Assembly: GCA_964421005.1 (NCBI GenBank)
Contig: CAYQUV010000002.1
Coordinates: forward strand, 1 to 47,127
DNA: 47,127 bases
Origin: an uncultured Candidatus Saccharibacteria bacterium
GTDB lineage: Bacteria > Patescibacteriota > Minisyncoccia > Minisyncoccales > CG1-02-41-26
Direction of reading: 5' to 3'
Positions 2,062-45,087 of the stretch are shown here, one piece after another. The notes beneath the pieces were generated by a model. That model did not search any database, was not told the DNA's origin, and saw only the letters and a list, made by a program, of their open reading frames with translations. Made by a program: the position numbers and the translations under genes. Position 1 is the stretch's first letter. Each line of letters starts with the position of its first letter.

Positions 2062-2084
2062 AAATTTTTATTCTCAACATATTC

Positions 2085-2694: not shown

Positions 2695-2706
2695 ATTTTA
2701 AGTTCT

Positions 2707-3303: not shown

Positions 3304-3463
3304 TATTTAATTATTGAATTTTTTAACAGACAACCTTTAATTTTGTTCTACAAATATTGCTTTTGGCAATGAAATGATACTTTGGAATACCGTTTTCCGT
3401 CTCAAAACTATCTTCACCGGTCCAATTAAAAATTTATCCGGCAAAAAATAACTGAAACTAGGG

Positions 3464-4123: not shown

Positions 4124-4138
4124 TTTGGCTAATAATTT

Positions 4139-4834: not shown

Positions 4835-4886
4835 TACTTTATTTTACCATTTCACGAAATTTCAATCAAAATTGAACAAAGTTTAA

Positions 4887-5606: not shown

Positions 5607-5621
5607 AAAAAATAGTTGTTT

Positions 5622-6596: not shown

Positions 6597-6742
6597 TTTA
6601 CTTCAATTGAAAGTATTGATTGAAAACAAAAAAGATTTTTATTGAAAGATTTTACCATATTTCAAGAATATAACAAAAGATTGAAGAAAAAGAAAAAAGA
6701 GAATAATGAACATCTCTTTATTTCAAACAGATTTTACTTCTT

Positions 6743-7711: not shown

Positions 7712-7748
7712 TTATCTTAACGTCTGATTTTTAATTAAATAATACCAA

Positions 7749-7795
7749 TATTGAGAGGCGAGGTTTTTTCTTAATAAACATGCCTCGCCTCTCAA
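7749..7795 (-). terminator. Candidate stem-loop terminator (perfect 14-bp stem) downstream of the MBL-fold gene
   Basis: ATTGAGAGGCGAGG (7749..7762) and CCTCGCCTCTCAAT (7782..7795) are perfect reverse complements around a 19-nt loop. The flanks are A/T-rich. It lies between two minus-strand genes. Confidence 0.6.
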
Positions 7796-7835
7796 TAATT
7801 TTCTTAAATATCAATCAAGATTAAATTACCTTCTC

Positions 7836-23971: not shown

Positions 23972-24215
23972 AATTTTAATAATAAATATTATATTTTATT
24001 TACTTATTATTATTATAACATTAAGTTTATAAATAATAAATTAAAGAAACATTGTTGTTTTAGAGATATAAATTAGTTTATTTTGGGGATAATTTGTTGA
24101 ATAATATGTTTAAAAATTTGTTTAAAGGTTTTTGATAAAATTTTATAATAATTGTAAAAAATTGTTTTTATTTTTATTTATTATTTTTATTAGATAATTT
24201 TTTATGTATTTATTT
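23972..24215. other. Extremely AT-rich dnaA-dnaN spacer: candidate oriC / DNA-unwinding region
   Basis: 244 bp with very few G/C. One DnaA-box-like 9-mer TGGGGATAA (24084..24092, reverse complement TTATCCCCA). Near-repeated A/T 14-16-mers TAAAAATTTGTTTA (24111..24124) and TAAAAAATTGTTTTTA (24155..24170). Confidence 0.4.
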
Positions 24216-25592: not shown

Positions 25593-25856
25593 AGGTTTGA
25601 AATAAAAATTAAAATTTAAAATAAAAATTAAAGAATGGAGAATTAAAGACCGAAGTTAATATTTTTATTATCTCTTATTATCTCTCTCCTTAAAAATAAT
25701 GCAACCTTACCGAAAAATCAATAAAAAACTTTTCCTTGTTGAAAATATGGGGATAACCTGTCAAGAAATTTTGCTTTATAATTCTATAAATTTATCTGAA
25801 CCATTTTCAAACTATCACAAATTTTCTTTTCCATCAATTATTTTATCAATTTAGAG

Positions 25857-25885
25857 TTGACCAAATTTTAAATAAGGGTTATATT
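25857..25885 (+). promoter_or_regulatory. Candidate promoter of the rpmH-rnpA-yidD-yidC-jag operon
   Basis: TTGACC (25857..25862), 17-bp spacer, TATATT (25880..25885), about 60 bp upstream of the rpmH ATG. Confidence 0.4.
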
Positions 25886-25944
25886 GTAAAAAATAATATC
25901 AATAAAATAAAAAATAGAATTTTAACATAAACTTAATATAAAAA

Positions 25945-26079
25945 ATGAGTATTACTTATAAACCAAGAAGAAGAAAAAGGAAAAAAACTCACGGTTTTAG
26001 GAAAAGAGAAAAAACGAAAAGCGGTAAAAAAATTCTTTCCCGGCGAAGGCGCAAAAAAAGAAAGAAACTGACTGTTTAA
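25945..26079 (+). CDS. rpmH: 50S ribosomal protein L34 (absent from the ORF track because it is under 60 aa)
   Basis: My translation is [44 protein letters not shown]. It matches the L34 pattern (..THGFR.R..T..G..IL.RRR.KGRK.LTV). Canonical position divergent from dnaA and upstream of rnpA. Confidence 0.9.
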
Positions 26080-27953: not shown

Positions 27954-28012
27954 AAAAAATAACCCATTCGTTGATAAGTTATATTTATCAACCTCTCCGC
28001 GGGTTATTTTTT
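27954..28012. terminator. Nested, bidirectional stem-loop between convergent operons
   Basis: Outer arms AAAAAATAACCC (27954..27965) / GGGTTATTTTTT (28001..28012). Inner hairpin GTTGATAA (27970..27977) / TTATCAAC (27985..27992). The right arm overlaps the stop of the 625-aa ORF. Confidence 0.6.
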
Positions 28013-29881
28013 AATTGGATAAATAGCGATAGCAGAAGCGCAAGATTTAGGAAGTATAAATCCTAATCCCCGAATTATACCGCATTTACCAATTTTATTA
28101 TCGGTTAAATCCATATCGCTTTTAGTGAAAATCTCAGAATGTTCACCGGGAGTATCTTTATCCCAGCATTTATCTGGATTCCTAGTACATTGTGTGTCTC
28201 TTTCAGGATCAATTTTGTTCTCAAAAAGAACTACTAAACAATTTCCTTTAATTTCAATAGAATTAATATTGTCGCCAAATTTTGTAGGTTCGGATTTCTT
28301 ATCCCCATTTAATTTTCTCAATTTTCCCCCTTCTATTTCTTCTGGAATATTTTGAGGGATATAAATCGGTAAGGTGCTGGTAGCAATCCAAATATATTCG
28401 CTAAGTTCAACTTCTTTTCCGGGGGGAGTATAGACTAAACATTCTCCTTCCCCATATTTATCAGTGCAGATTCTAACTTCCTCACAGGTAGAAATATTAC
28501 TACTTATCTCTTTGATATAAATTGAAGAAGCTTTATTTAATTTTCCATACTGGTCTATATCATCAGCTGATATTCTTCTAAACTCACCGGGTTTAAATTC
28601 TTTTCCTGTTGATTCTTCCGATGGTATGTTACCGGCTAATACATCTGTTTTCTCTACTTTTCCTTGAGTATTTATTTTCCATCCTTCTCTTGTTCTTTCT
28701 TCAAAAAATATTCTCAATTTTCCGTCTCCGTAAGGGTCATCATGCAACACGGCGATAAAATCACTTGTGTTGTCGTTTTTTATTCCTATTTTTTCTATTT
28801 TGTCATCAAGGCCAATATTAACAAGATTTTCCATATCAGAGATTTTACGATATTCTCCAAATCCTCCGGATTTATATAAATAAACTCCCGGTAGCATACT
28901 TTTTATTTGAACGGACAAAGGCGGATGTTCGACAAGGGAAGCCTTTTTAGTTTCTATAATTTCCTTTTTGTCTGGGTCATAGTCATAGTATTCTACTTTG
29001 GAACTGAATAGGCTAAAAAAGGGATTTTCGATAAAATCAATCATATGTATCACTCCCTGTGTTGCTCCTCCAATTTTATTTACATTCTCTGCTCCTTTTA
29101 CGCTTCCATCAAGAACATCTATTAATCCCTCAGAAGTATATTCATTATATAAAGATCCTTCAAAATCCTTTTTAGCAAAAAGTATTACTTTGGTTTTTCC
29201 ATATAAAGAATCTCCCGAAAAGGCAATTGCTCTAAAGTTAAAATTTTCAAAATTTACTTGGGTTACATTTCTATTGTTGTCCCAGTGGGTAGCCACAAAT
29301 CTCCCGGCGTCTTTTTCCCCCAATTCTTCTTCTTGAAGGTTTGAGATATTGTATCTTAGAGGATAAGCATTTTTGGAAGCGATAAGGTCTTCAAGAGTAG
29401 CTGAAATAACTTCTTCCGAAGAATTGTTTTTAAGGAGCGCTTTGAGTGCTTCGGCGCCCGTTGAGTCAAGTAAAACTGTTCCCGAGAAAACCGGCTCCCT
29501 TTCAACTGTCACAACTACTAATTGAGGGTTAATAGTTATTAAAATCAAATAAGAGCCAAGCAAGATTACTAAACCTAAAAAGGAATTCAGAATTCTGCCC
29601 CGAGCCGTTTGCATTATAGCAGGATTGCCGGTTGAGGTGAGATACATTATCCCAGCGTAAATTAAAGACCCAAAAGCGATAATAGCCCCGATTATAATAG
29701 CCCAGCTTACAAAATATTTGATAACACCTCCCAAAGGAGTGTCAATTCCAATGGTTTGCTCAGTGCCGGGCGGGGCAGGATAGTTATATTCTAAATCTAA
29801 AACTGCGAAACTAAAAAGAGGCAGAAATAACAGAATTGTTATTAATAAAATTTTGAATAGGCCTATTTTTGTAATTTTCAT
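28004..29881 (-). CDS. Exported 625-aa protein: N-terminal T4SS-pilin-like (TrbC/VirB2-type) two-helix module fused to a large unknown ectodomain
   Basis: Signal-like N-terminus, YPAPPGTE, then two TM helices with AGIMYLTSTGNPAIMQTARGRILNSFLGLVILLGSYLILITINPQLV. This module is clearly paralogous to the N-terminus of the 1809-aa ORF. Last gene of the operon, 3 nt after the previous stop. Confidence 0.75.
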   Translation of the reverse strand: MKITKIGLFKILLITILLFLPLFSFAVLDLEYNYPAPPGTEQTIGIDTPLGGVIKYFVSWAIIIGAIIAFGSLIYAGIMYLTSTGNPAIMQTARGRILNSFLGLVILLGSYLILITINPQLVVVTVEREPVFSGTVLLDSTGAEALKALLKNNSSEEVISATLEDLIASKNAYPLRYNISNLQEEELGEKDAGRFVATHWDNNRNVTQVNFENFNFRAIAFSGDSLYGKTKVILFAKKDFEGSLYNEYTSEGLIDVLDGSVKGAENVNKIGGATQGVIHMIDFIENPFFSLFSSKVEYYDYDPDKKEIIETKKASLVEHPPLSVQIKSMLPGVYLYKSGGFGEYRKISDMENLVNIGLDDKIEKIGIKNDNTSDFIAVLHDDPYGDGKLRIFFEERTREGWKINTQGKVEKTDVLAGNIPSEESTGKEFKPGEFRRISADDIDQYGKLNKASSIYIKEISSNISTCEEVRICTDKYGEGECLVYTPPGKEVELSEYIWIATSTLPIYIPQNIPEEIEGGKLRKLNGDKKSEPTKFGDNINSIEIKGNCLVVLFENKIDPERDTQCTRNPDKCWDKDTPGEHSEIFTKSDMDLTDNKIGKCGIIRGLGFILPKSCASAIAIYPIKK

Positions 29882-29884
29882 AAT

Positions 29885-31015
29885 TTATTCTCTTTCTAAT
29901 GTTGTTTCGTGGCAGCAAACATAGTTATAATAACTCCCCCCACAAATCCAGGCAATACACTCTTCTTCAGAGAGCCGCTTTTTACATTCAATATTTACCG
30001 CAACTATACCAAAAGGACCTACTGATGTTTCTACTGATGGTTCATCACAGCAAAGGCAATCTATACAATCTTGAGTAAGTTTTCCTTGTCCACAAACCTT
30101 TTTACAGGTTCCGTAAATTCTGTAATTAATTTTGGCTAAAGGAGACGCTTCCTCATCAGGTTTTTTTTGACCTAAACAATCTTTACAATCATCAATCGGG
30201 CCTTTTTCACAAACGCCCCGGCAACTCTCTGACCAGGGCTTTGGCCAATAAACTCCTTGAGCTAAAGCATCGCTGCATCTCATAGGATACCTGGCTCCTA
30301 ACTCTCCGGCTTCAACTTTTTTTCTTTCTATCTCTGACAAACTACAACTTCTTTTTCCTTTTTCAGCCGCCGAATGAAGCCACTCTCTGGCTAAATCTAA
30401 TTTTCTTCTTACAAATTCAGGCCATCTAATTAATTCTCCCACCGATTCTCCCTCTTTTCTTATATCTTCAGTAACTTTGTATTTTTTCTCGCTAAATATA
30501 TCACTAACTTTTTCGTAAGTACCCTCCACACCTCCTTTCATTGTTTCTAAGAATTTATAATAATCTTCAAGGTCGGGACAGGGTTCGCCAATACATTCTT
30601 TGACCGGGCAGAGGGGTATATGGAATCCTACTAAGGGCTTCGGTTTCTTAAAAGGAAGTTTAATTTTAAGCGAAAAATCAGGGGCTTGGTCAATAACCTG
30701 AGGCTGGCAGGCTGAAAAATCGCAAACTTCTTCAGGATTTTTATATAATTCGCTAACCTCACTTTGGGTTTGTTCAATAGCCGAAGAGAGATAACTTCTG
30801 ACATTCTGGAGTTCTGAATAAACTTCTGTCATTAATTTTAAACTTTCCTCAACCGCTTCCCCGGTTGGGATTGGCTCATCGCAAACTATCCTGGTGAGAG
30901 TAAATTCTTGGGCAGAAACCTTGTTTTTTTGATTTGACAGAAAAGCAGAAACCAAAAGGACTGGAACCAGAATTACCATTAAGAAATAAAGAGAAATTTT
31001 AATTTTCTTTGACAT
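29885..31015 (-). CDS. Exported or anchored cysteine-rich protein (376 aa), unknown family
   Basis: N-terminal hydrophobic anchor or signal. About 23 Cys by hand count. Duplicated C-x3-C-x7-C-x2-C unit and CC doublets near the C-terminus. Confidence 0.7.
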   Translation of the reverse strand: MSKKIKISLYFLMVILVPVLLVSAFLSNQKNKVSAQEFTLTRIVCDEPIPTGEAVEESLKLMTEVYSELQNVRSYLSSAIEQTQSEVSELYKNPEEVCDFSACQPQVIDQAPDFSLKIKLPFKKPKPLVGFHIPLCPVKECIGEPCPDLEDYYKFLETMKGGVEGTYEKVSDIFSEKKYKVTEDIRKEGESVGELIRWPEFVRRKLDLAREWLHSAAEKGKRSCSLSEIERKKVEAGELGARYPMRCSDALAQGVYWPKPWSESCRGVCEKGPIDDCKDCLGQKKPDEEASPLAKINYRIYGTCKKVCGQGKLTQDCIDCLCCDEPSVETSVGPFGIVAVNIECKKRLSEEECIAWICGGSYYNYVCCHETTLERE

Positions 31016-31063: not shown

Positions 31064-34000
31064 CTATTTTGTATAAGGTTGCATCCACTCATAACCTTCT
31101 AATACCTCTACTTGGTGTAAGAAAGGATAACGGAGAATATAAACTAAATAACAATACGGGTCCTTTAAAGGAGAAGGAGTCAGAGGAAGCCCGGAAATAC
31201 AGAAAGGTAGATGGCAGTAACTTTTGCCGCAAGTACAGTTGGCATTGGCAAAATTTATAGCCGTAGCTAAAGCCCAAACATTTTGGGTTTTCTTTTTTAT
31301 TTCTTCCGCCCAATTATAAAGCTCGGTAACTTTTTTGAAATAAAGACAGTCCTCTCCGCGTCGGTCTTCACCACAAGAATAATCTAACCAGACATTTAAA
31401 AGCCTCATTTTTAAATCTCCGATTTTTACATCCCAGTGTTCCTCTTCTTTTCGCAACAGATTAAGATGATTCAAATTCTGTCTCATTATAGCGAAATTGG
31501 ATTCTATAACCGAAAAAAGATGGTCAATTCTAGGGCAGACCGGTCCTCCCCGGACACTGGTTAATCCTCCGTAGCCGATGGCTGGGTTTGGTATACATTC
31601 TAGGGGTTTGAAACTTAATCCTTCTTCTTCCAACTGTGTTTCGGATATTGCTTTTAATTTTTCAGGAAGTTCTTCAATCATTGCTATTAATTGTTGAGCG
31701 CTTTCGTAAGCCCTTCTGGTATCTTCAATAGTGGTCTTTATTCCCCGGAAAAACAAAGTACCTGATTTTATCCCCAAGAGGACGGAATAAACTTCCATTA
31801 CTCCCTCTAAAGGGGTTCTGATGTCAAATAATTCAGTGGCGCATAACTCTCTTATTTCCTTTAACTGTTTTTCGTTTTCTTCTTTTGTTAAATCAGGGAT
31901 TTCTATTCCGAGAAGTCCGGAAATTTCTGTTCTCCACTCTTCATCTGCCAGATTTTCTTTTAATTGAGCAAAATCATTACATTGTTGTTCCAGACCCTTT
32001 TGGTATTCTAACTCAGAGCAAGTTTCTCTAAATTCTTTTGTAGCCACTTCAATAATAATTTCAGAGGTTAAAACTTCGCTAAGCTCTGTGCATGATGTAT
32101 ATTTTGACCTTCTTTCAAAATATAATCTATCTTCCCGTCTCTTTTGTACTGGTTCGCATATGTTTGTTTTCCACCATTGTTTGGGGTCACTTATTTCTTC
32201 GCTTTTTACTCTTTGAGCAAACTCTTCTATCGATGTTGTTTCAAAACCTTCTATTGAGGGACCCTTTCTGCTTAATCCTGAAACCAATTCATATCTGATT
32301 TGACACTTTTCGGTTAATTCTACTTTATTGTCGAGCAAGTCTTTGTCTAACTTACCCATTTCTCCTGTTTCTTCACAATTCTCTGTATTGTACTTACAAT
32401 CACATTCTATTTGTTTGGGGTCCATTTTCAGAATAAGGTCTAATTTTTGACAGCCGGATTTCATTTTCTCGTTGCCAAAAATTATTGTTCTTAAACTCGG
32501 ATATTTTTTATTCTTGATTTTATTTAGCTCATCACTCGGATTATCCCTGAATTTTTCTAAAAGTCTTTCGTCACTAACATATCCGGTGATAAAATCTTTA
32601 TCAGAACTAAATCTTTCTGAGAGCCGCGGGGCGATTCCATAATCGATGAAATTATCAAACAATTTCTTTATATTAGTTAAGGAATTATCTATTCCATCAA
32701 ATTGTTTCTTAAGAAAAGAGAGTGGACTTTGAAAGAACTTATCTTTGAAGCTTTCAAAACCTTCTCCACCGCTGGTTTTAATGCCCTTGAATCCTATTTC
32801 TAAATCAACATCTGTTATCTGAGGAATAGGGATTTCAAGGATAGGTTTAATTTCAGCAACCAACTTTCTTATTTCGTCAAATTCTGGGATTATTTCATTT
32901 AATTTTTCAATACCATTGAGAAAATGCCAGATTTGTTCAAATGTCTTTGTATTCTCTTGTTCAAAACATTTAAGTCGACCGAGAAATCCTTCCCCGGAAC
33001 TACCTTCCGGACAACTGTAAGTACCAACGAAATTTTTGATACTTTCCGGGTCCTCAAAAAGGAGTTGATTAATACCTTCCAAAGGACCGGTTGGAGAAAA
33101 GATTTCTTTCAATTTTTCTCTATTTTTTACTGAAAGACCAGGAGTATTCATTAGAGAATCTTTGAGTTCCATAATTTTATTGAGAGCGCTTAAAGCATTA
33201 TCTAGAATTAAAACAATATCTTGTGAAATTTCTTTAGTTTCTATAATATCTTCAACATATTTCTTTTGACTATATTCTTCCTCTCCCTTGTGCCAGATTT
33301 GATTTATTCGCAGAGAATGATTTTTCAGTTGTTCAATTTGAGATTTTAAATCTCCTATTTTATCCAAAGCAGTGTCAAAATCTTGATAAACTTGTTCTGG
33401 TATTCTCTCTTCGGGCAGGCTGCAACAATTTATTTTATTAGCAAAAGCATCCCAATTTTTACGGATTCCATTTACAAACCTGCCATCTGGACAAGACCTT
33501 AATTCTTTGTCTGCTAAAGGTTGTTCATTACATCCCGGTTCTCCTCCTGGAACTGAATTACAACAGGTCATTTCATCAGCCTTACTCCGTTTGTTTTTAT
33601 GGATTCCAGTTACAAATCTACCATCCGGGCAGTAGTTCCAAATACTATTTGATAAACCTTTACTACTACACTCTCGTTCTCCTTCCGGAACTGTTTCCGG
33701 TAAATTACAGCATCTTATACGATTAGCTTGACCTTCATCGTTTTTATGAATGGCATCTACAAACATTCCTTCAGGACAGTATTCCAAACCACCACTGTCC
33801 CATTCACCCCAGCCGCCTGCTTCTAAGTGTATCTCTATACATTCTGGTTTAGCTTCTTCAATCGTTTCTTCTATTTCGGTCAATTTATCTTCGGTTGTCT
33901 TTAGTTGCGAACTTATAATTGGAATTGTTAAAAATTCTGAGAGGGAAGATTGATCAATATTCTCTAAACCCTCGATTATAGGGTCAAAATCAACTCTTAG

Positions 34001-36304
34001 GACAGTTTCAGTTTTGCTGTCCCAATTATGATAAGCAAAACTTTGCTCGTAGCCGCATTTATTTTTAGCTTTTTGCTCAGCATCGTCAAAATTTTCAGCA
34101 TAAATAGTATAACTGGTGGGTGTCCAGTATTTAGCTTCAGTTACCCCTTCAGCGATTTCAATTGTTGGAAGATTATTAACCTGCTTGGAAAGATTTTCTT
34201 GAGAGGTTTTCAATTGATTAAATAAATTTAACACTTCGCTATAATTTAATCCCGTTTGAGAGAGTTTAGCGCTTGTATCATAGATTTCTTTAAAAGATTT
34301 AAACCAGGTGTTACTGGGGGTATAACAATAAACGGTACAATTTCCAGGACAAGTGATAGTAACTTCTCCAATCTTCCCTCCCAATCCGGGTACTTCCGGA
34401 TGGGAAACAATATTTTCGCCAAATTGTTGAGGGAAAGGAAGAGACCATTCTCTTTTTGGACAGTGGACATTATAAGTGATGCTTTTACTTTTTTCTATTT
34501 TACTTTTGACAAAACAATGCGGTTGGGGAGGAGGCAATTCTGGATCAAAAAAAGTGAAATCTTTTACGCGATAAGGATCATAATATTCTTTAGTTTCGGG
34601 ATAATAAATGATTTGATAATCTCCATCTGGACAACTAAAAATACACTTATCTTCAGAAAGAGAGGCAATACATTTAATTGGTATGGTTGGTAGATTTGAA
34701 TCGGAAATATAACAACTTTTTAATGGAATTTCTGGATCTGGATAAGAAATCTCAGGAATAGAACTTCCGGCAGATTCAGAACACATCATTTTGTAAGTAC
34801 AGCCATTGCCATCTCTGGAAATTCCGATGACAAATTTTTGATATTTAGGACCCGGACATAAATTCCACTCATCTTTTTTAAGTTTTATGCTTTCTTTAAA
34901 ATATTCTGCTCCCTGGGAACCTTCGATTAAGGAACAACAGCGTATATAATGGGCTTTGCCTGACTTTCTTGCTTCTAATCCGCTTCCGCACCAGTCATTA
35001 TTCTTACGGATGGCGACCACATATTGGCCATCTGGACAGGTTTTCCATTGGTTATCTCTAAGAAGTATATCTTCAGAGCATATTTGCTCTGACCAAGAAA
35101 CTGTGCCGGATATACTTGAGCATCTTATTTTATCAAGTTTTCCACTACTGTTTTTATGAACCCCGGTTACATATTTACCCTCAGGACAATAAACCCACTT
35201 TCCTTTTGTTGGTACTTCCAAATCTATCGGAGCTAAAAGGTTTCCGTTTTCTTCTAAACGGGTGACAAGTTGTTGGGGGGTTTCAAGATGGGAAAGATAC
35301 TCACTGATCATTCCCTGCACTTGGTTTCTTTTTGCTGAGCTTGCGGCAAAAAGAAATTTTACACCTTCCTCCTCTTTAAGTTTTTCTCTTAAATCAATAG
35401 TTTCTCTTTGGGCGTCTCCGATTAAACCGTAAGTTTCAGATTTTGCCTGGGAGAATTTTAGAAGACTATCGCTGTAATAATCGAGAAGATTACGAAAACC
35501 CAACTCCCCGCCTTTAACATTCAAAAGAGTGGTAAGAGAATCATAGAAAGTCCTAAGATAGGCTGCTTGCTGGAAAAAATCATTTAAAACTCTGATTCCT
35601 TGATTTATAGTTTCTGGAAGCTGGTAAATTACCCTGCGAATTTCATTGAGCTTACCAACAAAATTGAAAATTTTCCTTAAAGTATTTATCCATCCCATTG
35701 GTAAAAACATTTCAGCGATATCAAGCCAGCTAATTGTATAGCTTACTTCACCGAAACGGAGATTACAGGATGTTTTGCAGTTTCTTAAAAAAAGACATTC
35801 GGAAAGAGGGTCGGTGTTGTTAAAGATTTTTTTAGCGAAATAAACTATAGTGGCGGCTGTTCTCTGGATTCTTATGAAATCCGAACAGGCTTTGCTTAAA
35901 GCCCGTCTTTCTTCTTTTGTCAACATTTCTTCTTCCTGGGGCAAGGGAATGCTTAGTTCGCACATTTCAGGAATTTTTGGCCGGGGAATATCGGGTATGC
36001 CGTCTTTGGTTGTAGGAGTTTGGTCACTGCCGATATTAATGGCTGAAAAAGGATTATAACAGTCTTTATCTAGCACAGATGAGTATCCTAAACCTAACCG
36101 CTTGGGTAAACATTTAATTAAACGCCAGCTTCCCAGCATAATATCTCCATCATCTTCAAGTTTGAGTTCATCGGGCAACCTGATTTTCATTAGAAGGTCT
36201 CTCAGACTGAAAGCCTGAGCTTGTAAAGGAAGGGACTGTAAAAGAAGAGCTAATATTGTAATCAGGCAAATAGTATTTTTAAAATATCCATTCTTGAAAA
36301 ACAT
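31064..36304 (-). CDS. Giant secreted protein (1746 aa) with six copies of a novel Cys-bounded repeat
   Basis: Uninterrupted 5.2-kb ORF. Signal peptide (..LPLQAQA/FS). Repeats of the form W-x-x-CP-[DE]-G-x-[FY]-V-x-[GA]-[IV]-[HR]-K-N-...-CC at aa ~367-511 and ~837-963. Long helical regions and further Cys clusters. Confidence 0.8.
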   Translation of the reverse strand: MFFKNGYFKNTICLITILALLLQSLPLQAQAFSLRDLLMKIRLPDELKLEDDGDIMLGSWRLIKCLPKRLGLGYSSVLDKDCYNPFSAINIGSDQTPTTKDGIPDIPRPKIPEMCELSIPLPQEEEMLTKEERRALSKACSDFIRIQRTAATIVYFAKKIFNNTDPLSECLFLRNCKTSCNLRFGEVSYTISWLDIAEMFLPMGWINTLRKIFNFVGKLNEIRRVIYQLPETINQGIRVLNDFFQQAAYLRTFYDSLTTLLNVKGGELGFRNLLDYYSDSLLKFSQAKSETYGLIGDAQRETIDLREKLKEEEGVKFLFAASSAKRNQVQGMISEYLSHLETPQQLVTRLEENGNLLAPIDLEVPTKGKWVYCPEGKYVTGVHKNSSGKLDKIRCSSISGTVSWSEQICSEDILLRDNQWKTCPDGQYVVAIRKNNDWCGSGLEARKSGKAHYIRCCSLIEGSQGAEYFKESIKLKKDEWNLCPGPKYQKFVIGISRDGNGCTYKMMCSESAGSSIPEISYPDPEIPLKSCYISDSNLPTIPIKCIASLSEDKCIFSCPDGDYQIIYYPETKEYYDPYRVKDFTFFDPELPPPQPHCFVKSKIEKSKSITYNVHCPKREWSLPFPQQFGENIVSHPEVPGLGGKIGEVTITCPGNCTVYCYTPSNTWFKSFKEIYDTSAKLSQTGLNYSEVLNLFNQLKTSQENLSKQVNNLPTIEIAEGVTEAKYWTPTSYTIYAENFDDAEQKAKNKCGYEQSFAYHNWDSKTETVLRVDFDPIIEGLENIDQSSLSEFLTIPIISSQLKTTEDKLTEIEETIEEAKPECIEIHLEAGGWGEWDSGGLEYCPEGMFVDAIHKNDEGQANRIRCCNLPETVPEGERECSSKGLSNSIWNYCPDGRFVTGIHKNKRSKADEMTCCNSVPGGEPGCNEQPLADKELRSCPDGRFVNGIRKNWDAFANKINCCSLPEERIPEQVYQDFDTALDKIGDLKSQIEQLKNHSLRINQIWHKGEEEYSQKKYVEDIIETKEISQDIVLILDNALSALNKIMELKDSLMNTPGLSVKNREKLKEIFSPTGPLEGINQLLFEDPESIKNFVGTYSCPEGSSGEGFLGRLKCFEQENTKTFEQIWHFLNGIEKLNEIIPEFDEIRKLVAEIKPILEIPIPQITDVDLEIGFKGIKTSGGEGFESFKDKFFQSPLSFLKKQFDGIDNSLTNIKKLFDNFIDYGIAPRLSERFSSDKDFITGYVSDERLLEKFRDNPSDELNKIKNKKYPSLRTIIFGNEKMKSGCQKLDLILKMDPKQIECDCKYNTENCEETGEMGKLDKDLLDNKVELTEKCQIRYELVSGLSRKGPSIEGFETTSIEEFAQRVKSEEISDPKQWWKTNICEPVQKRREDRLYFERRSKYTSCTELSEVLTSEIIIEVATKEFRETCSELEYQKGLEQQCNDFAQLKENLADEEWRTEISGLLGIEIPDLTKEENEKQLKEIRELCATELFDIRTPLEGVMEVYSVLLGIKSGTLFFRGIKTTIEDTRRAYESAQQLIAMIEELPEKLKAISETQLEEEGLSFKPLECIPNPAIGYGGLTSVRGGPVCPRIDHLFSVIESNFAIMRQNLNHLNLLRKEEEHWDVKIGDLKMRLLNVWLDYSCGEDRRGEDCLYFKKVTELYNWAEEIKKKTQNVWALATAINFANANCTCGKSYCHLPFCISGLPLTPSPLKDPYCYLVYILRYPFLHQVEVLEGYEWMQPYTK

Positions 36305-36327: not shown

Positions 36328-39300
36328 TTAATAATCAGTTAATCTGTTAAGAGGAGGCCCGTCTACTAAAACATCGCCTAAAAGTTCTAAATGGAAGGTA
36401 AATTTATCAACAATACATTGCATAATACTTACACAGCACTTATTTTCTTTTTCTATTCTTTTTCGGCAGCAAAGCTTCAAATCATCTATCTCTCTATAAT
36501 CCTCTTTGTTTTCATCGCGGTAGCATTTCTTATCTTTTTCTTCTCTTTGGGTCGCTTCCCGGCAGATTCGGCAGCCATCATAAAAGCAGCATTTCTCATC
36601 TTCTTTTCTTTCTCCTATCTCTATTTTACACTCTTCCGTTCCTTTTCCCCGGCATCTTGGAACGCAAACCAACCCTTCTCCTAAGGAACAACATTCTTTG
36701 CTTTCTATTTTATAAACTTCTTCCGGGGATGAGCATTTTCCATTTACTTGTTCCACATTTGTAGCTGGCCTACATACACCCGCCATTTCATCGGCTGTTT
36801 TTCCTCCCAGTTCTACCCCTATTAATTTTCCAAGAGCTTTGCCCAGGATAGCAATACCTTGTTTGGGCCATTCCAGTAAAACTTGGTTAGAAGCATCTCT
36901 GATTCTAGCCTCCATATTAACTGTTGCTGCATTAATTCTTGCGTCAAGATTTTCTTTTGCTATAAAGATATTAGCCACAGTATCGGTTAGGTGAAGAGCT
37001 TTGCCTAGAGTATCTACATAACGTTCTCCTAAAGGAGTAGTCAGCGCTAAATAATCCATAAGAGAAGGAGAGATTGCTATTTTGTCGCTGATAAGTTTTT
37101 GCGGAAGAAGTTCTTCAATTAATTGAGCTGGAGTTTTTGCCAGAATATCTTGGATTCTCTGCCACTCTTCCCAGCCTAATCTTTGATTGAGACAAGCTTC
37201 TCCATGAATAATTTTTCCTTCAGGACCTGTCCCACATTCCGGATCAATTGCTCTAAAAATAAGTCTGATAATTTCCTCACTCATAGGTCCCTGGTTTATC
37301 TGGTTTCCGATTGGAGTCGCCAAGAAATCAGCAAAGGCTATCATATTTTCTCCCATATTTTGTTCTTGGAACGATTCAATCTCAAATCCTTGAGTTTCAA
37401 GTGCTTCTTTTACTCTTTCTAAATCTACCGGTTTGGTGTAAACATCAGCATCTAAATTATCTTCTGTTCCATGCTGATAAAAATAAATAGCTTCTGCCCC
37501 AGCTTGAAGCGCTTTTGATTCTAATTCTTCTTTATCCTCTTTATTAATAACTAAAGAAATTATTCCTTCAAATGTTTGAACTTGGCTCTGTTCCAGATTC
37601 ATTCCTATTTTTCTGAGAAGAGTTACCGGTGTGTCGCCGTATAAATAACGCAGGAGATCATTTAAGGCCTCCGGCCTTTCTTCGGGTTTCAACTTATCTC
37701 TAATCAGGGCAAATAAAATCTGATACTCTTTTGGATGAACATAATAGACAAGGTTTTGGTCAAGGCCAAAGATTTGAGCCGGATTAAAATCCAACAAAAG
37801 ACAGCTTATATATTGCTCTTTGCGCTCTGAGGGAACTTCTTCTCCCGGAGCATCTAAAAGAATCTCTAAAGCTTTGGCAGTGGTTGGCCTTTCCAAACTT
37901 TCCATTGAATACCTGGGACCCCTTGCTTCAGCAAATTCTCTCGCCATTATATTTTCAAAAGTCCAGTCTGGAAAATCTTCTCTGAAGTCTTTGATTACTT
38001 TTCCGCAGACACCATCATGTAAAAGCCCGTAAGGAGTTTGGGCAAGAAAATTTCTTCCCCGGTAATTCTCACCTTTCAAGTAGCGCATTATGCCAAAAGA
38101 AGGCCAGGTAAGGACATCATAGAGCGTTGTATTTTGAGCAATCCAAGCAACAAAAGCTTTGGCAAAATCTTCGCCTTTTTGTTGCTGAAGGGATAAATCA
38201 TTAAGCCTGCTAATGCCTTCTGCTTCTTCTTTTGGCGAGATATCGCTTTTTTCAGGATTTCTTTCTCCCCAATCTCTGGTCCAATCATTGTATAATTCTC
38301 TTTCTTTGATTAATCGGTCAGTATCTTTTCTTATATCTTGATTTGGAAAAGCAACTGTTAACCATTGATAACTTTCTATTTCTTCTTGTTTTTCTTCTGA
38401 AGTTCTTTGGTCTGTTGGTTCTATCAAATTATAATGCTTTTCTATCCCATATTTGAAGAGAGTAAAAGCAATTGAGTTATTAACTGAAATCTTACAGCTT
38501 TCACATTGGAAATTAAGATTATTTGGTAAATCTTGTTTTTTGCAGCCTCCATAACAACCAACTCCGTTACATTCTTCAGCTACTTTTCTGTCTACTCTAT
38601 TACATTCGGTATTCAAGAGATTCTTGATTATTGTTCCGATTGGCCTGTTCCAGCCGGACAAGGGATTTTCACAAGCGTACCATCTGAAATAACAAAAAGC
38701 CTTTTCTGATTCAGACATTAAACTCCACTCCGTTTTTAATGTATCCGGATAGGGGAAAAGTCCTCCTATTTCTTTTGTTCTCACTTTATTACAAGCATCC
38801 TTTATAGTCTGGTTACTTTCTCCTCTTTTTTGGATATTAAGTTCTCCGCAAATAACCTGTTTTGGGGTTCCGATGATGAGGTCTTTGATGTTGGTTATTT
38901 CCGGCCAGAGAAGTTCAGCCGGAGATTTATTCAGATATTTATCCCTGATATCATCAGGTATAAATTCTTCAATTTTATTCTCAAGAGGTTTTTTAACTTC
39001 TTCTGGTAAATATTCAAAAGGCTCTGAATGGAGACGTTTTTCAATTTCGCAAGCATATTTTCCCACATTACTTCCAATTTCTATTTCATCCATTCCTTGA
39101 TAAAGTTTAATTGTTTGTCCTCTTTCTGCTTTTTTACAAATATCGGCTAATATCTGGTCTATATTGCTTTCCAAATACCCGGCTATTTGTTTAGGCAAAA
39201 GGTCTTTAATTGTTGAAGATAAAAATTGATGGAGTTTTTTCTGGAAATCGCTTAGTTGTTTAAGATAAGGTTGTAGAGGGGTTAGAATTTCATCTTCCAC

Positions 39301-41757
39301 CCAAACCTGGGCATATCGGGTTAAGGTATAAACAGAAGTTTGAGTTAGAGCAACTAGAAGTTGCTCAGCGAAATTAACTGTTCCGGCAAGAAATTCTCTT
39401 GTCCATTTTGAAATATTTTCCCTGGTTGGTTTTATACTTCCCCAGTCTATCCACTCTCCATAACACTCGCCACATTCTTTTCCTTTTTCGGCCGTTCTGT
39501 CCCAGCAATAACCAGCATAATGGCAAAAGTCATCTTTATTTTCTTCTGTTTTAAATGAAGGATGGTCGATTCCTTCACTTATTTTATCCCATTCAGTGTT
39601 TATTTCTTCAGGAGTCGGATGAAGACACTTTCCCTCTCCCGTTTTTTCATTTGTAACTTGAAAATATCTTCCTTCTGTTACAAAACATTTCTCTCGAGGA
39701 AGATATTCAGGAGCGTAATCAGGATTATTCTTTTTCCATTTCTCTATTTGTTCTATAGCAGGCATACTTAGCTGGGTGCCTAAATCAGCAACTAATTCCG
39801 CTGTTTTATTATCCGCTCTTTTTTTGAGGTCCTTTAAATTCTCCATCAGAAAAGCATCAACTGTCTGGAGATAGCTTGAAACAAAGAATGGTAAAACTTC
39901 TGTCATTCTTTTTACTAAGTTTTCCCTTAAAAAAGGAACTTGCTCTTCCAAGCTTTGTTTTAAACCTTTCTGTAAAACGGCCGGCAAAAGGTCAATTATT
40001 TCACTGCCCAAAATCTGATTCAGGTCTCTATCAAAAATTACATCTCTTAATTTTGTTTTGAGAATTCTTTGGATTTCTTCGGGCAGGCGCTCTCTTAAAT
40101 CTTCAGTTAAAACATCAACCAGCTTATTGGAAAGGAAATGAGGAGGAATGTTTTGTTTTCTGCAATCCGCTTCGCTCATTCCCTTCTTCCGGCAATCTGC
40201 TATCATTTTGTCGGAAATATCCCTTGTTATTCCTTCTCTCATTTTTTCCAAAAATGCTTCGGTAAAATCTAAATTTTGCCCGGCTAAAGTTTCGCCTAAA
40301 TAGTCGGCCAATCCTTCTCTTATTGTCTTTTCAACAATATCTGAAAGATTTTCTTCATCAAGTATAAATGTCCCTTGACCAAAAGCAGAGCTTAGGCATT
40401 CTTGAATCATTTGTTCAATATCTTCCAAACTAAGCTGGGTTAAAACAGAAAACAAACTTGCCCTCTGGCTCTCCCGGTAAATCCTCTGATTTTCTCTTCT
40501 TATTTCCGGGGGAATGATTTCGCCTTCCAAAGGAGCATAAAAAGTAAAAGGGTCACTGATGGCAGGACTCATTTTTACTTCCTGGCTTTGGGGGAATTGC
40601 TTTGGTTTCTCCAACTCAATTTCATAACCCAAATCTTTTATGGCTTCTTTGTGGCTGAGGAAGTCCTCTTGGAAATCAATTTCTAACAATCCGGAGATTA
40701 AAAAGTTCCCTGTGTTTATTCCTAAAGTTTTTTCAATTAAACCTAATTGGCCAGTGGAAAGTTTTATTTTCTGGCCTTGGAGTTCGGCTAAAAGTTCCTG
40801 GAGTCGTTCCCTTTTTTCTTTTATTTCTCTTAAATCGCACTTTGGAGCTGAGATTTCTTGGCCTTTTTCGTTTATATCCTCTCCGGTTCCGCAATTATAA
40901 CAGCGGGTTAAGCAGACATTCTGTCCTCCCTTTAAAAGTTCTTCGAGTTCCTCTACTGTTTTTGCCCCCATTTTATCCAAAAAACTCTGACTTTTTTTCT
41001 CTTTTTCAGACATCCCGCCGACACATTTTCCTTCTAAACCATCCCATTCTACATGATATTTTGTGTTTCCGCATTGACAATTTTTTAAAGCACTCATTAA
41101 GTTGTTAGTTGTTTCAACTACATCGGTCAAAATACCTATAATCTCAAGCAAAGGAGCTTCAATTAAATGAACCTTATCTCTTGGGAATTCGCCCAAAGAG
41201 AGGAGAACTTCTCTCATCTCTTCATTGGTAGAAGTTGTTTCGTCAAGGTCATTAATTGTTTTTTCAAGGAGTGTTCCGAGAGGAATCTGTAAAAAAGTAA
41301 CTTTTTCAGCAGAAATCAAAGGAGAAACGCCGGGAGTTATTATAGAAGGAGGAGCTTCTACCTTAAAAACAAGCAATTGAGGATTAATTACTGCTAAAAT
41401 TAAATAGGAACAGATTATAATTAAAAGACCTAAAAGTCCTTGGTTTATTCTGGTTTTGGCAATAACTAAAACAGCCGGTTTAGCGCCGGAAATTAAATAT
41501 AAAACTCCGCCATAAATTACAACAGTAACTGCTACAGCGATAGCAAGTACAAAAAATAGGCGGAGAAAATAATTTATATAGAGAGGAAAAGCCTCCTGAG
41601 CGGAAATGATTCCTCCTTCTATTTTTTCTTGAATCTGGTTTGGAGTTTCAGCTCCTGGTATTGGAGGGTATTTTATCTCCAGAGCAAAAGCAGAATTAGC
41701 CCCGAAAAGAAAAACAATCAAAAGAGAAACAAAAAGAAATTTTTTAAACCTTACCAT
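36328..41757 (-). CDS. Giant protein (1809 aa): signal peptide plus T4SS-pilin-like module fused to a roughly 1650-aa ectodomain with a Cys-rich tail
   Basis: Uninterrupted 5.4-kb ORF. Signal (..ANSAFA/LE), YPPIPGAE, two TM helices with GGVLYLISGAKPAVLVIAKTRINQGLLGLLIIICSYLILAVINPQLL. The last ~150 aa contain 17 Cys by hand count, including four CC doublets. Confidence 0.8.
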   Translation of the reverse strand: MVRFKKFLFVSLLIVFLFGANSAFALEIKYPPIPGAETPNQIQEKIEGGIISAQEAFPLYINYFLRLFFVLAIAVAVTVVIYGGVLYLISGAKPAVLVIAKTRINQGLLGLLIIICSYLILAVINPQLLVFKVEAPPSIITPGVSPLISAEKVTFLQIPLGTLLEKTINDLDETTSTNEEMREVLLSLGEFPRDKVHLIEAPLLEIIGILTDVVETTNNLMSALKNCQCGNTKYHVEWDGLEGKCVGGMSEKEKKSQSFLDKMGAKTVEELEELLKGGQNVCLTRCYNCGTGEDINEKGQEISAPKCDLREIKEKRERLQELLAELQGQKIKLSTGQLGLIEKTLGINTGNFLISGLLEIDFQEDFLSHKEAIKDLGYEIELEKPKQFPQSQEVKMSPAISDPFTFYAPLEGEIIPPEIRRENQRIYRESQRASLFSVLTQLSLEDIEQMIQECLSSAFGQGTFILDEENLSDIVEKTIREGLADYLGETLAGQNLDFTEAFLEKMREGITRDISDKMIADCRKKGMSEADCRKQNIPPHFLSNKLVDVLTEDLRERLPEEIQRILKTKLRDVIFDRDLNQILGSEIIDLLPAVLQKGLKQSLEEQVPFLRENLVKRMTEVLPFFVSSYLQTVDAFLMENLKDLKKRADNKTAELVADLGTQLSMPAIEQIEKWKKNNPDYAPEYLPREKCFVTEGRYFQVTNEKTGEGKCLHPTPEEINTEWDKISEGIDHPSFKTEENKDDFCHYAGYCWDRTAEKGKECGECYGEWIDWGSIKPTRENISKWTREFLAGTVNFAEQLLVALTQTSVYTLTRYAQVWVEDEILTPLQPYLKQLSDFQKKLHQFLSSTIKDLLPKQIAGYLESNIDQILADICKKAERGQTIKLYQGMDEIEIGSNVGKYACEIEKRLHSEPFEYLPEEVKKPLENKIEEFIPDDIRDKYLNKSPAELLWPEITNIKDLIIGTPKQVICGELNIQKRGESNQTIKDACNKVRTKEIGGLFPYPDTLKTEWSLMSESEKAFCYFRWYACENPLSGWNRPIGTIIKNLLNTECNRVDRKVAEECNGVGCYGGCKKQDLPNNLNFQCESCKISVNNSIAFTLFKYGIEKHYNLIEPTDQRTSEEKQEEIESYQWLTVAFPNQDIRKDTDRLIKERELYNDWTRDWGERNPEKSDISPKEEAEGISRLNDLSLQQQKGEDFAKAFVAWIAQNTTLYDVLTWPSFGIMRYLKGENYRGRNFLAQTPYGLLHDGVCGKVIKDFREDFPDWTFENIMAREFAEARGPRYSMESLERPTTAKALEILLDAPGEEVPSERKEQYISCLLLDFNPAQIFGLDQNLVYYVHPKEYQILFALIRDKLKPEERPEALNDLLRYLYGDTPVTLLRKIGMNLEQSQVQTFEGIISLVINKEDKEELESKALQAGAEAIYFYQHGTEDNLDADVYTKPVDLERVKEALETQGFEIESFQEQNMGENMIAFADFLATPIGNQINQGPMSEEIIRLIFRAIDPECGTGPEGKIIHGEACLNQRLGWEEWQRIQDILAKTPAQLIEELLPQKLISDKIAISPSLMDYLALTTPLGERYVDTLGKALHLTDTVANIFIAKENLDARINAATVNMEARIRDASNQVLLEWPKQGIAILGKALGKLIGVELGGKTADEMAGVCRPATNVEQVNGKCSSPEEVYKIESKECCSLGEGLVCVPRCRGKGTEECKIEIGERKEDEKCCFYDGCRICREATQREEKDKKCYRDENKEDYREIDDLKLCCRKRIEKENKCCVSIMQCIVDKFTFHLELLGDVLVDGPPLNRLTDY

Positions 41758-42202: not shown

Positions 42203-43990
42203 TTATTTCTTTAATTTTTTCTTGAGCTCTTTTATTTTCTTTACTTCCTCGGGAGAAGAAGTGATAATCTGGTCTTCAGCATAACTCGCTACTACCTTAA
42301 GAGCAACCCTTTTTTGGCCGGCAATAAAAATTCCTTCTCCAACATCACATTCTAGAAGAAGATATTTTTCTTCGTCAGCCAGGTTGAAAGTTTTTTGAAC
42401 AAAATCAATAGTAGCGGGACTTTGTTTCATTAGAAACTGTAAAGAAGAATTAGTGATAATCGGTTGACCGTAAGCCGATTTCATAAAATCGCCGATGTCC
42501 TGAGTAATAGTTGAAACACCCAGCCAATATTTCCTGGCTCTTTTACAGATGCCGAACAAAAACGAAGCGCCGTCTTCCGATTGCATTATCCACCATGCTT
42601 CATCAACCAGCAGAATTCTTTTTTTCAACTCGGCTCTAATACTGTTCCAGATATATCTTAAAATAATAAACATAGCCATTGGCCTTAATTCCTCCTCCAT
42701 ATCTCTAATTCCAAAGCTGACTAAGCTCTTTTCCATTGAGACATTTGTCGGATTGTTAAAGAATTGGGCATAATTTCCGGTGGTGAATTTTCTTACTCTT
42801 TCAACCAGAGATTCTGCTCCCTCCATACCTTCAAGAATTGTTTGGAAATCCGACATTAGAGGAATTCTCTCTTTCCATTTGCTCGGGTCGGATTCGGGGG
42901 TAATATCTCTGGCTTTGTAAGTTTCAATAATTGCTCTATCAATAATAGAATCTTCTTCCGGAGTTAATCCCCCCAACATTATTCTGAAAAGGCCTACCAG
43001 ATTTATTGCGTTTGATCTTAGAGTATCCTCCGGTTTCTCGTCTTCGGTTGGAGGAGGAAGATCAAAAGGATTTAAATGATGGGGTGAAGTCAGAGAAACA
43101 TTAAAGAAAGAGCCACCTACTGCTTCAGCCAGCCATTGATATTCGTTTTCCGGGTCTATTATTATCACCGGAACATCCTGCATCAGATATCTCAAAGCTT
43201 CTAGTTTACAAAAATACGATTTCCCGCTGCCGCTTTTTGCGAAAACGCACATATTACCATTTTCTAAAGTAAACCTATCAAAGAGAACCAAAGAATTATT
43301 ATGTTGGTTTATGCCGTAGAGAATTCCCTCGTTAGCACTTAAATCCGGGGAAACGAAAGGGAAGATACTTGACAAAGGAGCGGTATTCATCGGCGTGTGA
43401 ACCAGAATTTCATCCAGACCGTAGGGTGAAGTTGAGATAAAACCTTCCTTTTCTCTTAACAGAGTCGGTTTTATATAAATCAATCTTGACTCAAAAACCG
43501 ACCTCATTCTAATTTCAATATCCCTTAATTCTTTTTGGCTGTCTCCGTAAACAGTGATATAAAGCCCTAATCTGAAAACTCTTTCACTTGCCGTTTGGAG
43601 GGCATCTCTTAAGTTTTCAATATCCTTGTATGCGGTTTCCAGAGTCGGGTCGCGGATAAGGCCTTTCTCTTCTCTTTCTATCAGTTCGGCTTGAACTTCA
43701 GTTATTTTTTTTCTAAGTTGTCTTAAAATTACTGCTGAATCTACTGGATGGATATGAAAAGAGATATCCAAAGGATGGTTAATATTGATAATTGGCGACA
43801 TCCAGCCGGTTGAAAGATATCTCGGATAAGAAAAAACAAAAAAAGTTTTGGAAAATCTTTCTCCCAATCTTAAATAATTTTGAGATACTTCAACCGACGA
43901 TGGAGCAACAATATCCTCAATTTTTATTTCTTCTTTTTTTAATTTTAATCCTTTAATTTCTCTTTCTTTTTTTAAAAAGGGCAGTTTCAT
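42203..43990 (-). CDS. virB4: VirB4/TraC-family T4SS ATPase (short, 595 aa)
   Basis: Walker A FAKSGSGKSYF (about aa 250). Walker B ILLVDEAWWIM. Downstream GVSTITQDIGDF. N-terminal ..YLRLGERFSKTFFVFSYPRYLSTGWMSPI..PLDISFHIHP typical of VirB4 pre-ATPase domains. Confidence 0.85.
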   Translation of the reverse strand: MKLPFLKKEREIKGLKLKKEEIKIEDIVAPSSVEVSQNYLRLGERFSKTFFVFSYPRYLSTGWMSPIININHPLDISFHIHPVDSAVILRQLRKKITEVQAELIEREEKGLIRDPTLETAYKDIENLRDALQTASERVFRLGLYITVYGDSQKELRDIEIRMRSVFESRLIYIKPTLLREKEGFISTSPYGLDEILVHTPMNTAPLSSIFPFVSPDLSANEGILYGINQHNNSLVLFDRFTLENGNMCVFAKSGSGKSYFCKLEALRYLMQDVPVIIIDPENEYQWLAEAVGGSFFNVSLTSPHHLNPFDLPPPTEDEKPEDTLRSNAINLVGLFRIMLGGLTPEEDSIIDRAIIETYKARDITPESDPSKWKERIPLMSDFQTILEGMEGAESLVERVRKFTTGNYAQFFNNPTNVSMEKSLVSFGIRDMEEELRPMAMFIILRYIWNSIRAELKKRILLVDEAWWIMQSEDGASFLFGICKRARKYWLGVSTITQDIGDFMKSAYGQPIITNSSLQFLMKQSPATIDFVQKTFNLADEEKYLLLECDVGEGIFIAGQKRVALKVVASYAEDQIITSSPEEVKKIKELKKKLKK

Positions 43991-44679: not shown

Positions 44680-45087
44680 TTATCTTAACCCTCTTTCTAT
44701 TTTGGAAGAAAGTTTCCTTAGTTTACTTTCGGGAGAAACTTTTAAAGGAGCCTCTTCCTTTTCTTTTTTCTTAACCCCTTCTTTTTCTAAAAGTTTAATA
44801 ACCGGTTTCTCTTTTTTTTCCCAGATGTATCTTTTTGCCGAAATAAAATATCCAAAAAACTGTCCTACTAAGTGATAGAGAGGTATTCCTTCAATTCTAA
44901 ACAGTAAAAGAGCCGCAGTTCCCCCTCCGACAATAAAAAGAACGAAAACAAAGGTAGAGAGAGGTAAAAGATAATACAAAACAAACAAAATTATACCAAC
45001 TATGCCGAGATAAGCTAACTGCTTGAAAGTTAAAAAAGCAAAAATCTTTGTTTCTCTTTCTAAAAATTTTGGTACCTTAAACCTCAT
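44680..45087 (-). CDS. PrgI-family (VirB3-like) two-TM protein, first gene of the operon
   Basis: 135 aa. ..KIFAFLTFKQLAYLGIVGIILFVLYY.. followed by a second TM and a basic tail. Size, topology and position immediately upstream of VirB4 match VirB3/PrgI. Confidence 0.6.
   Translation of the reverse strand: MRFKVPKFLERETKIFAFLTFKQLAYLGIVGIILFVLYYLLPLSTFVFVLFIVGGGTAALLLFRIEGIPLYHLVGQFFGYFISAKRYIWEKKEKPVIKLLEKEGVKKKEKEEAPLKVSPESKLRKLSSKIERGLR

Follow-up and report, generated by a model that had tools for sequence, protein, structure and literature searches.

The window analysed here is a stretch of 47,127 nucleotides (nt) from an uncultured Candidatus Saccharibacteria bacterium (GenBank assembly GCA_964421005.1, contig CAYQUV010000002.1, forward strand). 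On its minus strand, at 31064..36304, lies a gene for a secreted, cysteine (Cys)-rich protein of 1746 amino acids (aa) containing 61 Cys residues. The protein starts with a probable Sec signal peptide (36212..36304, minus strand; MFFKNGYFKNTICLITILALLLQSLPLQAQA/FS, read from the sequence by eye), and no Pfam or NCBIfam family matches it above threshold. It contains six copies of a short, Cys-bounded repeat, grouped in threes at two separate sites, and it is encoded within a gene cluster for a type IV secretion system (T4SS). In this report, we describe these repeats, their relatives and their surroundings. The repeat is probably a divergent, shortened variant of the triple-repeat domain found in VMO-I and dermatopontin, present twice and forming an insert domain in this giant T4SS-associated protein.

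Six repeats arranged as two triplets

The first triplet, here called domain A or cluster 1, occupies slot 1 of the protein (34754..35233, minus strand, aa 358-517) and comprises repeats R1 to R3; the second, domain B or cluster 2, occupies slot 2 (33398..33853, minus strand, aa 818-969) and comprises R4 to R6. All six repeats are read from the minus strand. R1 (35114..35206, aa 367-397) is without a linker Cys and ends in a single Cys. R2 (34928..35074, aa 411-459) has a linker Cys at 411 and the Cys of its C-P-x-G motif (CP Cys) at 423, ends in a Cys-Cys (CC) doublet and carries an 11-aa loop insert with an extra Cys. R3 (34772..34876, aa 477-511) is divergent (CPGPKYQKFVIG), has no linker Cys, ends in a single Cys and bears one extra Cys in a loop. 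The repeats of cluster 2 measure 39-47 aa (31-55 aa in cluster 1) and all end in CC: R4 (33701..33841, aa 822-868) with linker Cys 822, a GGWGEW motif and CP Cys 843, R5 (33554..33670, aa 879-917) with linker Cys 879 and CP Cys 892, and R6 (33416..33532, aa 925-963) with linker Cys 925 and CP Cys 938.

The first-pass annotation of this DNA had listed six repeat strings, and all of them are present, at aa 367-397, 417-459, 477-511, 837-868, 886-917 and 932-963. They map to nt 35206..34772 and 33796..33416, so that the span of 33410-35200 given for them was accurate to within 6 nt. The repeat unit drawn there is real but too short, since its true start lies approximately 14-21 residues upstream of the CP Cys. 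The added part is a short strand, in which four of the six copies hold the linker Cys.

A hidden Markov model (HMM) built from copies 4-6 alone was run, as a test of chance similarity, against all 161 six-frame open reading frames (ORFs) of the window. It recovered copy 1 (independent E-value 2.8e-11) and copy 2 (5.4e-9) and matched nothing outside the 1746-aa protein. Copy 3, which reached 6.2 bits and an E-value (E) of 0.1, is not significant alone; it was accepted because of its position, its Cys pair and a more canonical equivalent (...CTDRSPGNGPAPPFVTGIHKN...YC) that retains FVTGIHKN in the orthologue encoded on a metagenome contig, L005. The same search ruled out a seventh copy at two further CP[DE]G sites, at aa 558 and aa 1098, the latter being part of the conserved scaffold of the protein.

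This scaffold becomes apparent from the orthologues. For the whole protein, a search of 5.8 billion clusters gave 14 relatives, at 25-44% identity, and BLAST blocks over 15 relatives place the segments kept among orthologues at aa 1-360, 613-815 and 975-1738; both triplets fall exactly into the gaps between them. In slot 1, the triplet is recognisable in P0016 (aa 352-509), a protein from the search of representative sequences, is degenerate in P0005 and has left just remnants in P0007. Unrelated Cys-rich sequence occupies slot 1 in P0002-P0004, and the slot is short in P0006 and P0008-P0012. The slot 2 triplet is cleanly inserted, adding about 150 aa between ...EEAKP and ...VYQDFDTALDKIG; P0016 and each of the 14 other relatives lack it, and it is present in L005. 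This contig (Ga0210057_1023738) was found by a scan with the triplet alignment, and its orthologue, which is truncated at the 5' end, has cluster 2 together with two or more of the repeats of slot 1. Compared with the window, cluster 2 of L005 is 56% identical by tblastn, and slot 1 is about 30% identical in a global alignment. A scan of 185,579 species genomes with an alignment of the whole protein gave three orthologous loci, and the two that were examined have no triplets. Among 1.84 billion representative proteins there is one close relative of the triplet variant, P0016. The variant is thus rare, and its direct impact correspondingly limited. P0016 also ends in an extra Cys-rich tail (…CAGKVCGPDGRGGSCGTCTGNKRRCKSDGTACIICKYDTDCDW…; about 9900-10238 of locus L006) that has no counterpart in the window protein and is a third variable position on the scaffold.

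The Cys residues of the repeats follow a simple rule. In the window, the repeats with a linker Cys (R2, R4, R5 and R6) end in CC, whereas R1 and R3, which have no linker Cys, end in a single C. P0016 obeys the same rule (R1 without linker Cys and with one C, R2 and R3 with linker Cys and CC), which also holds in L005. Altogether, the three proteins provide 13 repeats, eight with linker Cys and CC and five with neither, without exception. In particular, two Cys have disappeared together from the third cluster 2 repeat of L005 (R6'), namely the linker Cys and the second one of the CC doublet (SPSSVDV...KCSNL, versus EPGCNEQ...NCCSL in the window). Over all 62 collected repeats the counts are 44, 12, 5 and 1, most exceptions being N-terminally truncated sequences. 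The paired loss in L005 is the best evidence for two disulfides: an optional one, which would connect the linker Cys to the second Cys of CC, and an invariant one, which by elimination we infer to link the CP Cys to the first terminal Cys. That the Cys residues are structural, as proposed earlier from the sequence, is borne out by their being conserved or covarying in orthologues that have retained the domain. P0016, L005 and P0005 preserve the Cys and CP.G positions, and most other orthologues are without the domains altogether rather than holding degraded copies.

Relationship to VMO-I and dermatopontin

The first-pass annotation could not place the repeat in a named domain family. Remotely, the triplets are related to two Pfam families, VOMI (PF03762; gathering threshold 25 bits) and Dermatopontin (PF14704, or DERM; 28.3 bits), and the repeat therefore does, in part, match described families. 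Cluster 2 of L005 exceeds the VOMI cutoff, with 26.7 bits and an E of 7e-6 in three stretches, and the P0016 triplet gives no Pfam VOMI match. The segment that matches the VOMI profile is GGWGEW...CPEG-[FY]-V, with WGEW..CPEG of R4 at profile positions 7-33.

Profile comparisons extend this relationship to both families. A family profile composed of the two window triplets, P0016 and L005 was compared by hhalign with four bona fide VOMI domains (92.1%, E 6e-7, 93 columns) and with the bona fide dermatopontin P0025 (94.8-96.3%, best E 2e-9, 108 columns, 30% identity), and reversed templates used as controls gave 0.1-0.2%, which is not significant. VOMI and DERM aligned directly with each other reach 15.8% (E 0.0016, 14 columns). 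In a multiple alignment, A5, the window triplet and P0025 line up in register and are 29% identical. In the reciprocal direction, a search of the 1.84 billion representatives with an HMM of all six copies yielded 22 matches at E<=1e-3. These include P0019, a bona fide multi-VOMI animal protein (VOMI 242 bits), P0025 itself (DERM 113 bits), P0024, a bacterial lipoprotein-like protein that matches both families (VOMI 26.6, DERM 22.3), and several unannotated three-repeat proteins.

The dermatopontin family, to which invertebrate haemagglutinin and aggregation-factor homologues also belong, is the best profile match of the window family. Its domain, about 150 aa long, is built of three repeats of about 45 aa in tandem, and its members, like the window protein, are extracellular and disulfide-rich. 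The motif C-P-x-[GD]-x-[FY]-V-x-G-[FI]...x-C-C is common to both, and the window triplet shows the three-repeat/CC pattern. In human DPT, the CC doublet has as its partner a linker Cys some 14 residues upstream, and the same coupling occurs in P0029, P0033 and others. A hallmark of dermatopontin repeats is a D-R-[EQ]-W-x-[FY] motif ahead of the terminal Cys or CC, seen in P0025 as NDRRTSVQCC. The window domain differs from dermatopontin in a hairpin loop that is about five residues shorter and in being a bacterial insert, whereas dermatopontin is a stand-alone metazoan extracellular-matrix protein.

VMO-I (PDB entry 1VMO) is likewise made of three homologous repeats, Greek-key in VMO-I and forming there a beta-prism with internal threefold symmetry, each bounded by a Cys pair, starting with W-G-x-W...C-P-x-G-[FY] and ending in ...I-x-x-C. 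VOMI is the only relevant Pfam family detected for the window protein. However, its profile is matched only by the first part of each window repeat, the window repeat is about nine residues shorter from Cys to Cys, and the CC doublet with a linker Cys is not a VMO-I pattern, save in the third repeat of VMO-I.

The fold of cluster 2 was modelled with AlphaFold2 (aa 818-969) from an 11-sequence alignment. The model has a predicted local distance difference test score (pLDDT) of 86.8, a predicted template modelling score (pTM) of 0.81 and 12 strands, four in each repeat; a single-sequence run gave a pLDDT of 52 and was unusable. In the modelled unit, strand 1 is short and begins at the linker Cys (CIEIH, CSSKG, CNEQP), strand 2 (W/L-x-Y) stands directly ahead of the C-P-x-G turn, strand 3 (F-V-x-G-I-H/R-K) is long, and strand 4 (A-N/D-x-I/M-x-C-C) follows past a tight turn of five residues (N-x4). 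According to this model, the cluster 2 triplet is a compact pseudo-threefold all-beta domain, probably with the fold of a miniaturised beta-prism from the lineage of VMO-I and dermatopontin. Cluster 1 is assumed to fold like cluster 2 because the repeats are homologous.

Foldseek comparison of the model with the PDB returned chains of jacalin-type beta-prism I lectins as five of the first six matches and as eight of the 50 matches listed. Those at the top are horcolin (two entries, among them 7V4Z), griffithsin (3LL1), heltuba (1C3M) and banana lectin (1X1V), with alignments close to full length. These lectins resemble the modelled domain in size (120-150 aa) and in having 12 strands in three four-stranded sheets; they differ from it in having no disulfides, and with 10-13% identity they show no sequence relationship. 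They bind carbohydrate, and the likeness serves as an analogy for function only. VMO-I is cited as a beta-prism by crystallography in two papers (PMC2881412, PMC4904793) and, together with jacalins and domain II of delta-endotoxins, represents the classic type-I beta-prisms (PMC2881412, PMC8878817, PMC4904793). Foldseek against viral structures gave nothing meaningful (best template modelling (TM) score 0.27), and a sequence search of the PDB with P0025 as the query found no structure of the dermatopontin family.

Two further protein families came to light in these searches. Among the matches of the six-copy HMM, P0018, P0021, P0026, P0030, P0031 and P0032 form an unannotated family, several members of which have signal-peptide-like N-termini. 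A shorter motif, G-M-H-[SA]-C-P-x-G-x-x-[VM]-x-G-[IVL]-H-V-x-x-N-x-L-x-C, recurs many times in them with a three-unit periodicity (HSCP / HACPEG / HACP), and their VOMI matches are sub-threshold only; from its sequence, the motif looks like another mini variant of the C-P-x-G hairpin. The second family (P0033 and P0038-P0064) consists of small uncharacterised proteins, which among the named matches come from octocorals only (Paramuricea, Xenia and Dendronephthya). Their repeats read linker-Cys...W-S-x-C-x-x-G-[FY]-[FYI]-[LI]-x-G-[LV]-Y-R...R-C-C, some members have PAN/Apple domains, and the three members scanned gave no VOMI or DERM match. A word-index homologue search with the mixed alignment A5 returned almost only this octocoral family and not the window family, owing to a limitation of the word index; the same type of search with cluster 2 alone found nothing.

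Several other matches were discarded. Sequence searches of the PDB (phmmer and hmmsearch, with the triplet and the six-copy profile) pointed to MS2 coat protein, CFAP52, a Fab and internalin B, all of them chance noise. A Pfam Meleagrin match of 12.7 bits and the PBCV1_P7 matches in other proteins are Cys-pattern noise. Our literature search found no paper joining dermatopontin with VMO-I or with the beta-prism fold, and none describing VMO-I/dermatopontin-like domains in Patescibacteria.

A relaxase-less type IV secretion cluster

The cluster that contains the gene includes a PrgI-family T4SS protein (44680..45087, minus strand; 32.9 bits, gathering threshold 27), followed by a TraC/TrsD-like gene (44005-44649) and a VirB4-like T4SS ATPase with a TraG P-loop domain (42203..43990, minus strand; 84.5 bits). 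A small ORF comes next, then an upstream giant Cys-rich protein of 1809 aa (36328..41757, minus strand), the synteny of which is conserved, and the 1746-aa gene. Immediately downstream lies a 376-aa Cys-rich protein (29885-31015, minus strand), and after it a protein of 625 aa whose N-terminal segment is T4SS-pilin-like (28004-29881, minus strand; T4SS_pilin 22.7 bits, below the gathering threshold), and the cluster is then followed by jag, yidC, dnaA and dnaN. The same gene order is found in L001 (GCA_030616605.1), L005 and L006. No relaxase domain was detected in any ORF scanned. The cluster is a chromosomal, origin-proximal, relaxase-less Patescibacteria T4SS of a kind resembling MPF-FATA (mating-pair formation class FATA), and the window genome is Patescibacteria-like, that is, of the candidate phyla radiation (CPR).

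A cluster layout like that of the window has been described for Patescibacteria, in a survey that found no adhesins in these T4SS clusters (PMC12102498). What the T4SS does in Saccharibacteria and other Patescibacteria has been called "completely unknown", yet the system is essential for epibiotic growth, including that of S. epibionticum (PMC11665869, PMC10633639).

The neighbours of the 1746-aa gene have peculiarities of their own. The 376-aa protein has no Pfam or NCBIfam family match; its syntenic counterparts measure 344 aa in L001, 352 aa in L006 and 536 aa in L005 (4089-5699), where the Cys-rich C-terminal tail is longer. In the 1809-aa protein, aa 1380-1464 match the second and third domains of TACO1/YebC (Pfam 28.0 bits, gathering threshold 27, and weak NCBIfam YebC matches). 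Such a segment is odd in this protein, the N-terminus of which resembles a signal peptide with a pair of hydrophobic helices after it (to the eye pilin-like, with no match to Pfam T4SS_pilin). A genuine yebC gene is present at 19073-19795.

Elsewhere in the window, the stretch 24001-26000 has the lowest G+C content (26.4%) and overlaps dnaA (24216-25592) and the intergenic stretch from dnaA to yidC; it is probably the oriC region. In L001, rpmH and rnpA lie between dnaA and yidC. On the plus strand, a gene at 16230-17501, located between ruvB and a glycosyltransferase gene, encodes a protein of 423 aa that has two lamin-tail domains (LTD, 126 bits). The minus-strand region 466-8867 contains sensor-type genes, namely a PAS-PAS histidine kinase (466-2061) and two proteins with HAMP domains (3464-4123 and 6743-7711), interspersed with family-less ORFs, a flavin adenine dinucleotide (FAD) oxidoreductase and a metallo-beta-lactamase-fold protein.

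Proposed role and competing explanations

We consider it probable that the 1746-aa protein presents two three-repeat VMO-I/dermatopontin-like domains, set in slots of a T4SS-cluster scaffold, and that these act as lectin-like or ligand-binding heads. Under this proposal, each triplet would fold as one pseudo-threefold all-beta domain, most likely a small beta-prism; the two domains sit in two variable slots of a secreted scaffold that is conserved elsewhere. Through these heads, a T4SS-associated surface protein could engage a glycan or a protein of the host cell.

The functional part of the proposal is based on the promotion of cell adhesion by dermatopontin (PMC7230369) and on the location of the triplets in dispensable, variable slots. 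Furthermore, a carbohydrate-binding role is assumed for beta-prism domains, and a cleft in VMO-I can accommodate carbohydrate (PMC4904793). Surface adhesins of MPF-FATA T4SS, such as PrgB of Gram-positive conjugative systems, offer a functional analogy only: they too are large secreted proteins encoded in a monoderm-type T4SS cluster, and the window protein could similarly establish cell-cell contact. The two differ in sequence, with no similarity between them and no PrgB-like domains detected in the window protein with Pfam. An adhesin or receptor-binding role on a secreted protein had been suggested before; the signal peptide, Sec-type by eye, agrees with secretion and the role is plausible, while binding itself is put forward here as a candidate activity.

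A number of results weigh against this reading. Cluster 2 of the window scores 22.0-22.4 bits against Pfam VOMI (E 1.4-1.9e-4), below the 25-bit cutoff, and cluster 1 gives no Pfam match at all; hmmscan reports no DERM for the window, P0016 or L005 triplets at E<=10. The hhalign profiles are tiny, with three to four sequences each. HMM-to-sequence searches of the PDB do not reach 1VMO, which is also missing from the 50 Foldseek PDB matches listed, and those matches are not significant (E ~0.5, TM 0.32-0.36, root-mean-square deviation ~11 A). Since the alignment given to AlphaFold2 held two VOMI domains, the model of cluster 2 does not provide an independent test of the VOMI hypothesis. In terms of motifs, the dermatopontin DRxW is absent from all six window repeats, which have A-[ND]-x-[IM] instead, and the D-D-T-A-x-N-x-[IV] loop and strand of VMO-I, seen in the 1VMO alignment, is absent as well, the window reading [GK]-x-A-[ND]-x-[IM]-x-C-C. 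Finally, in a global alignment of the window with L005, cluster 2 is 59% identical and the scaffold 47-61%. Cluster 2 is therefore as conserved as the scaffold, and over that distance does not behave like a fast-evolving specificity determinant.

The same conservation would suit an explanation in which the fold is as we propose and the domains bind no ligand: held rigid by their disulfides, they would space or stabilise a structural component of the T4SS outside the cell, or would serve the neighbouring giant Cys-rich proteins as docking sites. The whole protein and its neighbours are rich in Cys, and most orthologues manage without the domains. However, being dispensable and replaced in orthologues is seen more often in accessory binding heads than in structural cores, and the known relatives bind ligands: carbohydrate, as is assumed, in the case of beta-prisms (PMC4904793), with promotion of cell adhesion reported for dermatopontin (PMC7230369). 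We regard such a purely structural role as unlikely.

It is less likely still that the triplets adopt a different pseudo-threefold all-beta fold, be it a beta-trefoil or a new one, and resemble VMO-I and dermatopontin in C-P-x-G...C by convergence or through a shared hairpin only. The TM scores of about 0.35 to beta-prism lectins, with 1VMO not among the 50 matches listed, leave room for this, as do the 15.8% between VOMI and DERM in hhalign and a repeat some nine residues shorter than that of VMO-I. A beta-trefoil was considered on account of the three times four strands and is disfavoured because none occurs among the 50 Foldseek PDB matches listed, although trefoils are abundant in the PDB. 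Moreover, the hhalign alignments cover two to three repeats in register and vanish in the reversed controls, and the L005 orthologue lies above the Pfam VOMI cutoff.

The first-pass annotation had pictured small tandem modules, each a disulfide-stapled beta-hairpin. The hairpin survives in part: the segment F-V-x-G-I-H-K / A-N-x-I-x-C-C is modelled as one, but it comprises only strands 3 and 4 of a longer four-strand unit. The notion of six separate modules is not supported for cluster 2, which is modelled as a single compact 12-strand domain. As every copy holds a predicted Cys-closed hairpin, and as the window protein has no above-threshold Pfam or NCBIfam match, one might still envisage six independent hairpin beads on an adhesin stalk, from a family without a named relative. 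This is improbable. The copies come strictly in threes in the window, P0016 and L005, and also in unrelated matches such as P0022, P0024, P0020 and P0036; a pTM of 0.81 over the whole triplet implies fixed packing between the repeats, hence one domain and not three beads; and the remote homology is to VOMI and DERM, both three-repeat families. Chance similarity or a low-complexity artefact, for which one could cite only that copy 3 is not significant alone, is refuted by the HMM of copies 4-6, which detects copies 1 and 2 at E 1e-9 to 1e-11, and by the conservation of the repeats in P0016 and L005, and has a negligible probability.

A bolder version of the binding-head proposal, which we find doubtful, would make the triplets swappable host-recognition heads in two hypervariable slots of the giant scaffold. 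As lineage-specific, lectin-like beta-prism inserts, they would represent the "missing adhesin" of the CPR T4SS, setting host range, and would link VOMI and dermatopontin into one superfamily. Even in its more restrained form, a secreted, cluster-encoded protein with lectin-like domains in variable slots would be a testable candidate for host contact. The window family, in addition, scores above 90% in hhalign against both VOMI and dermatopontin, two families that barely align with each other. Should larger profiles bear this out, a single superfamily built on the C-P-x-G hairpin triplet would unite two extracellular-matrix families of metazoans with several as yet unannotated families from bacteria and cnidarians.

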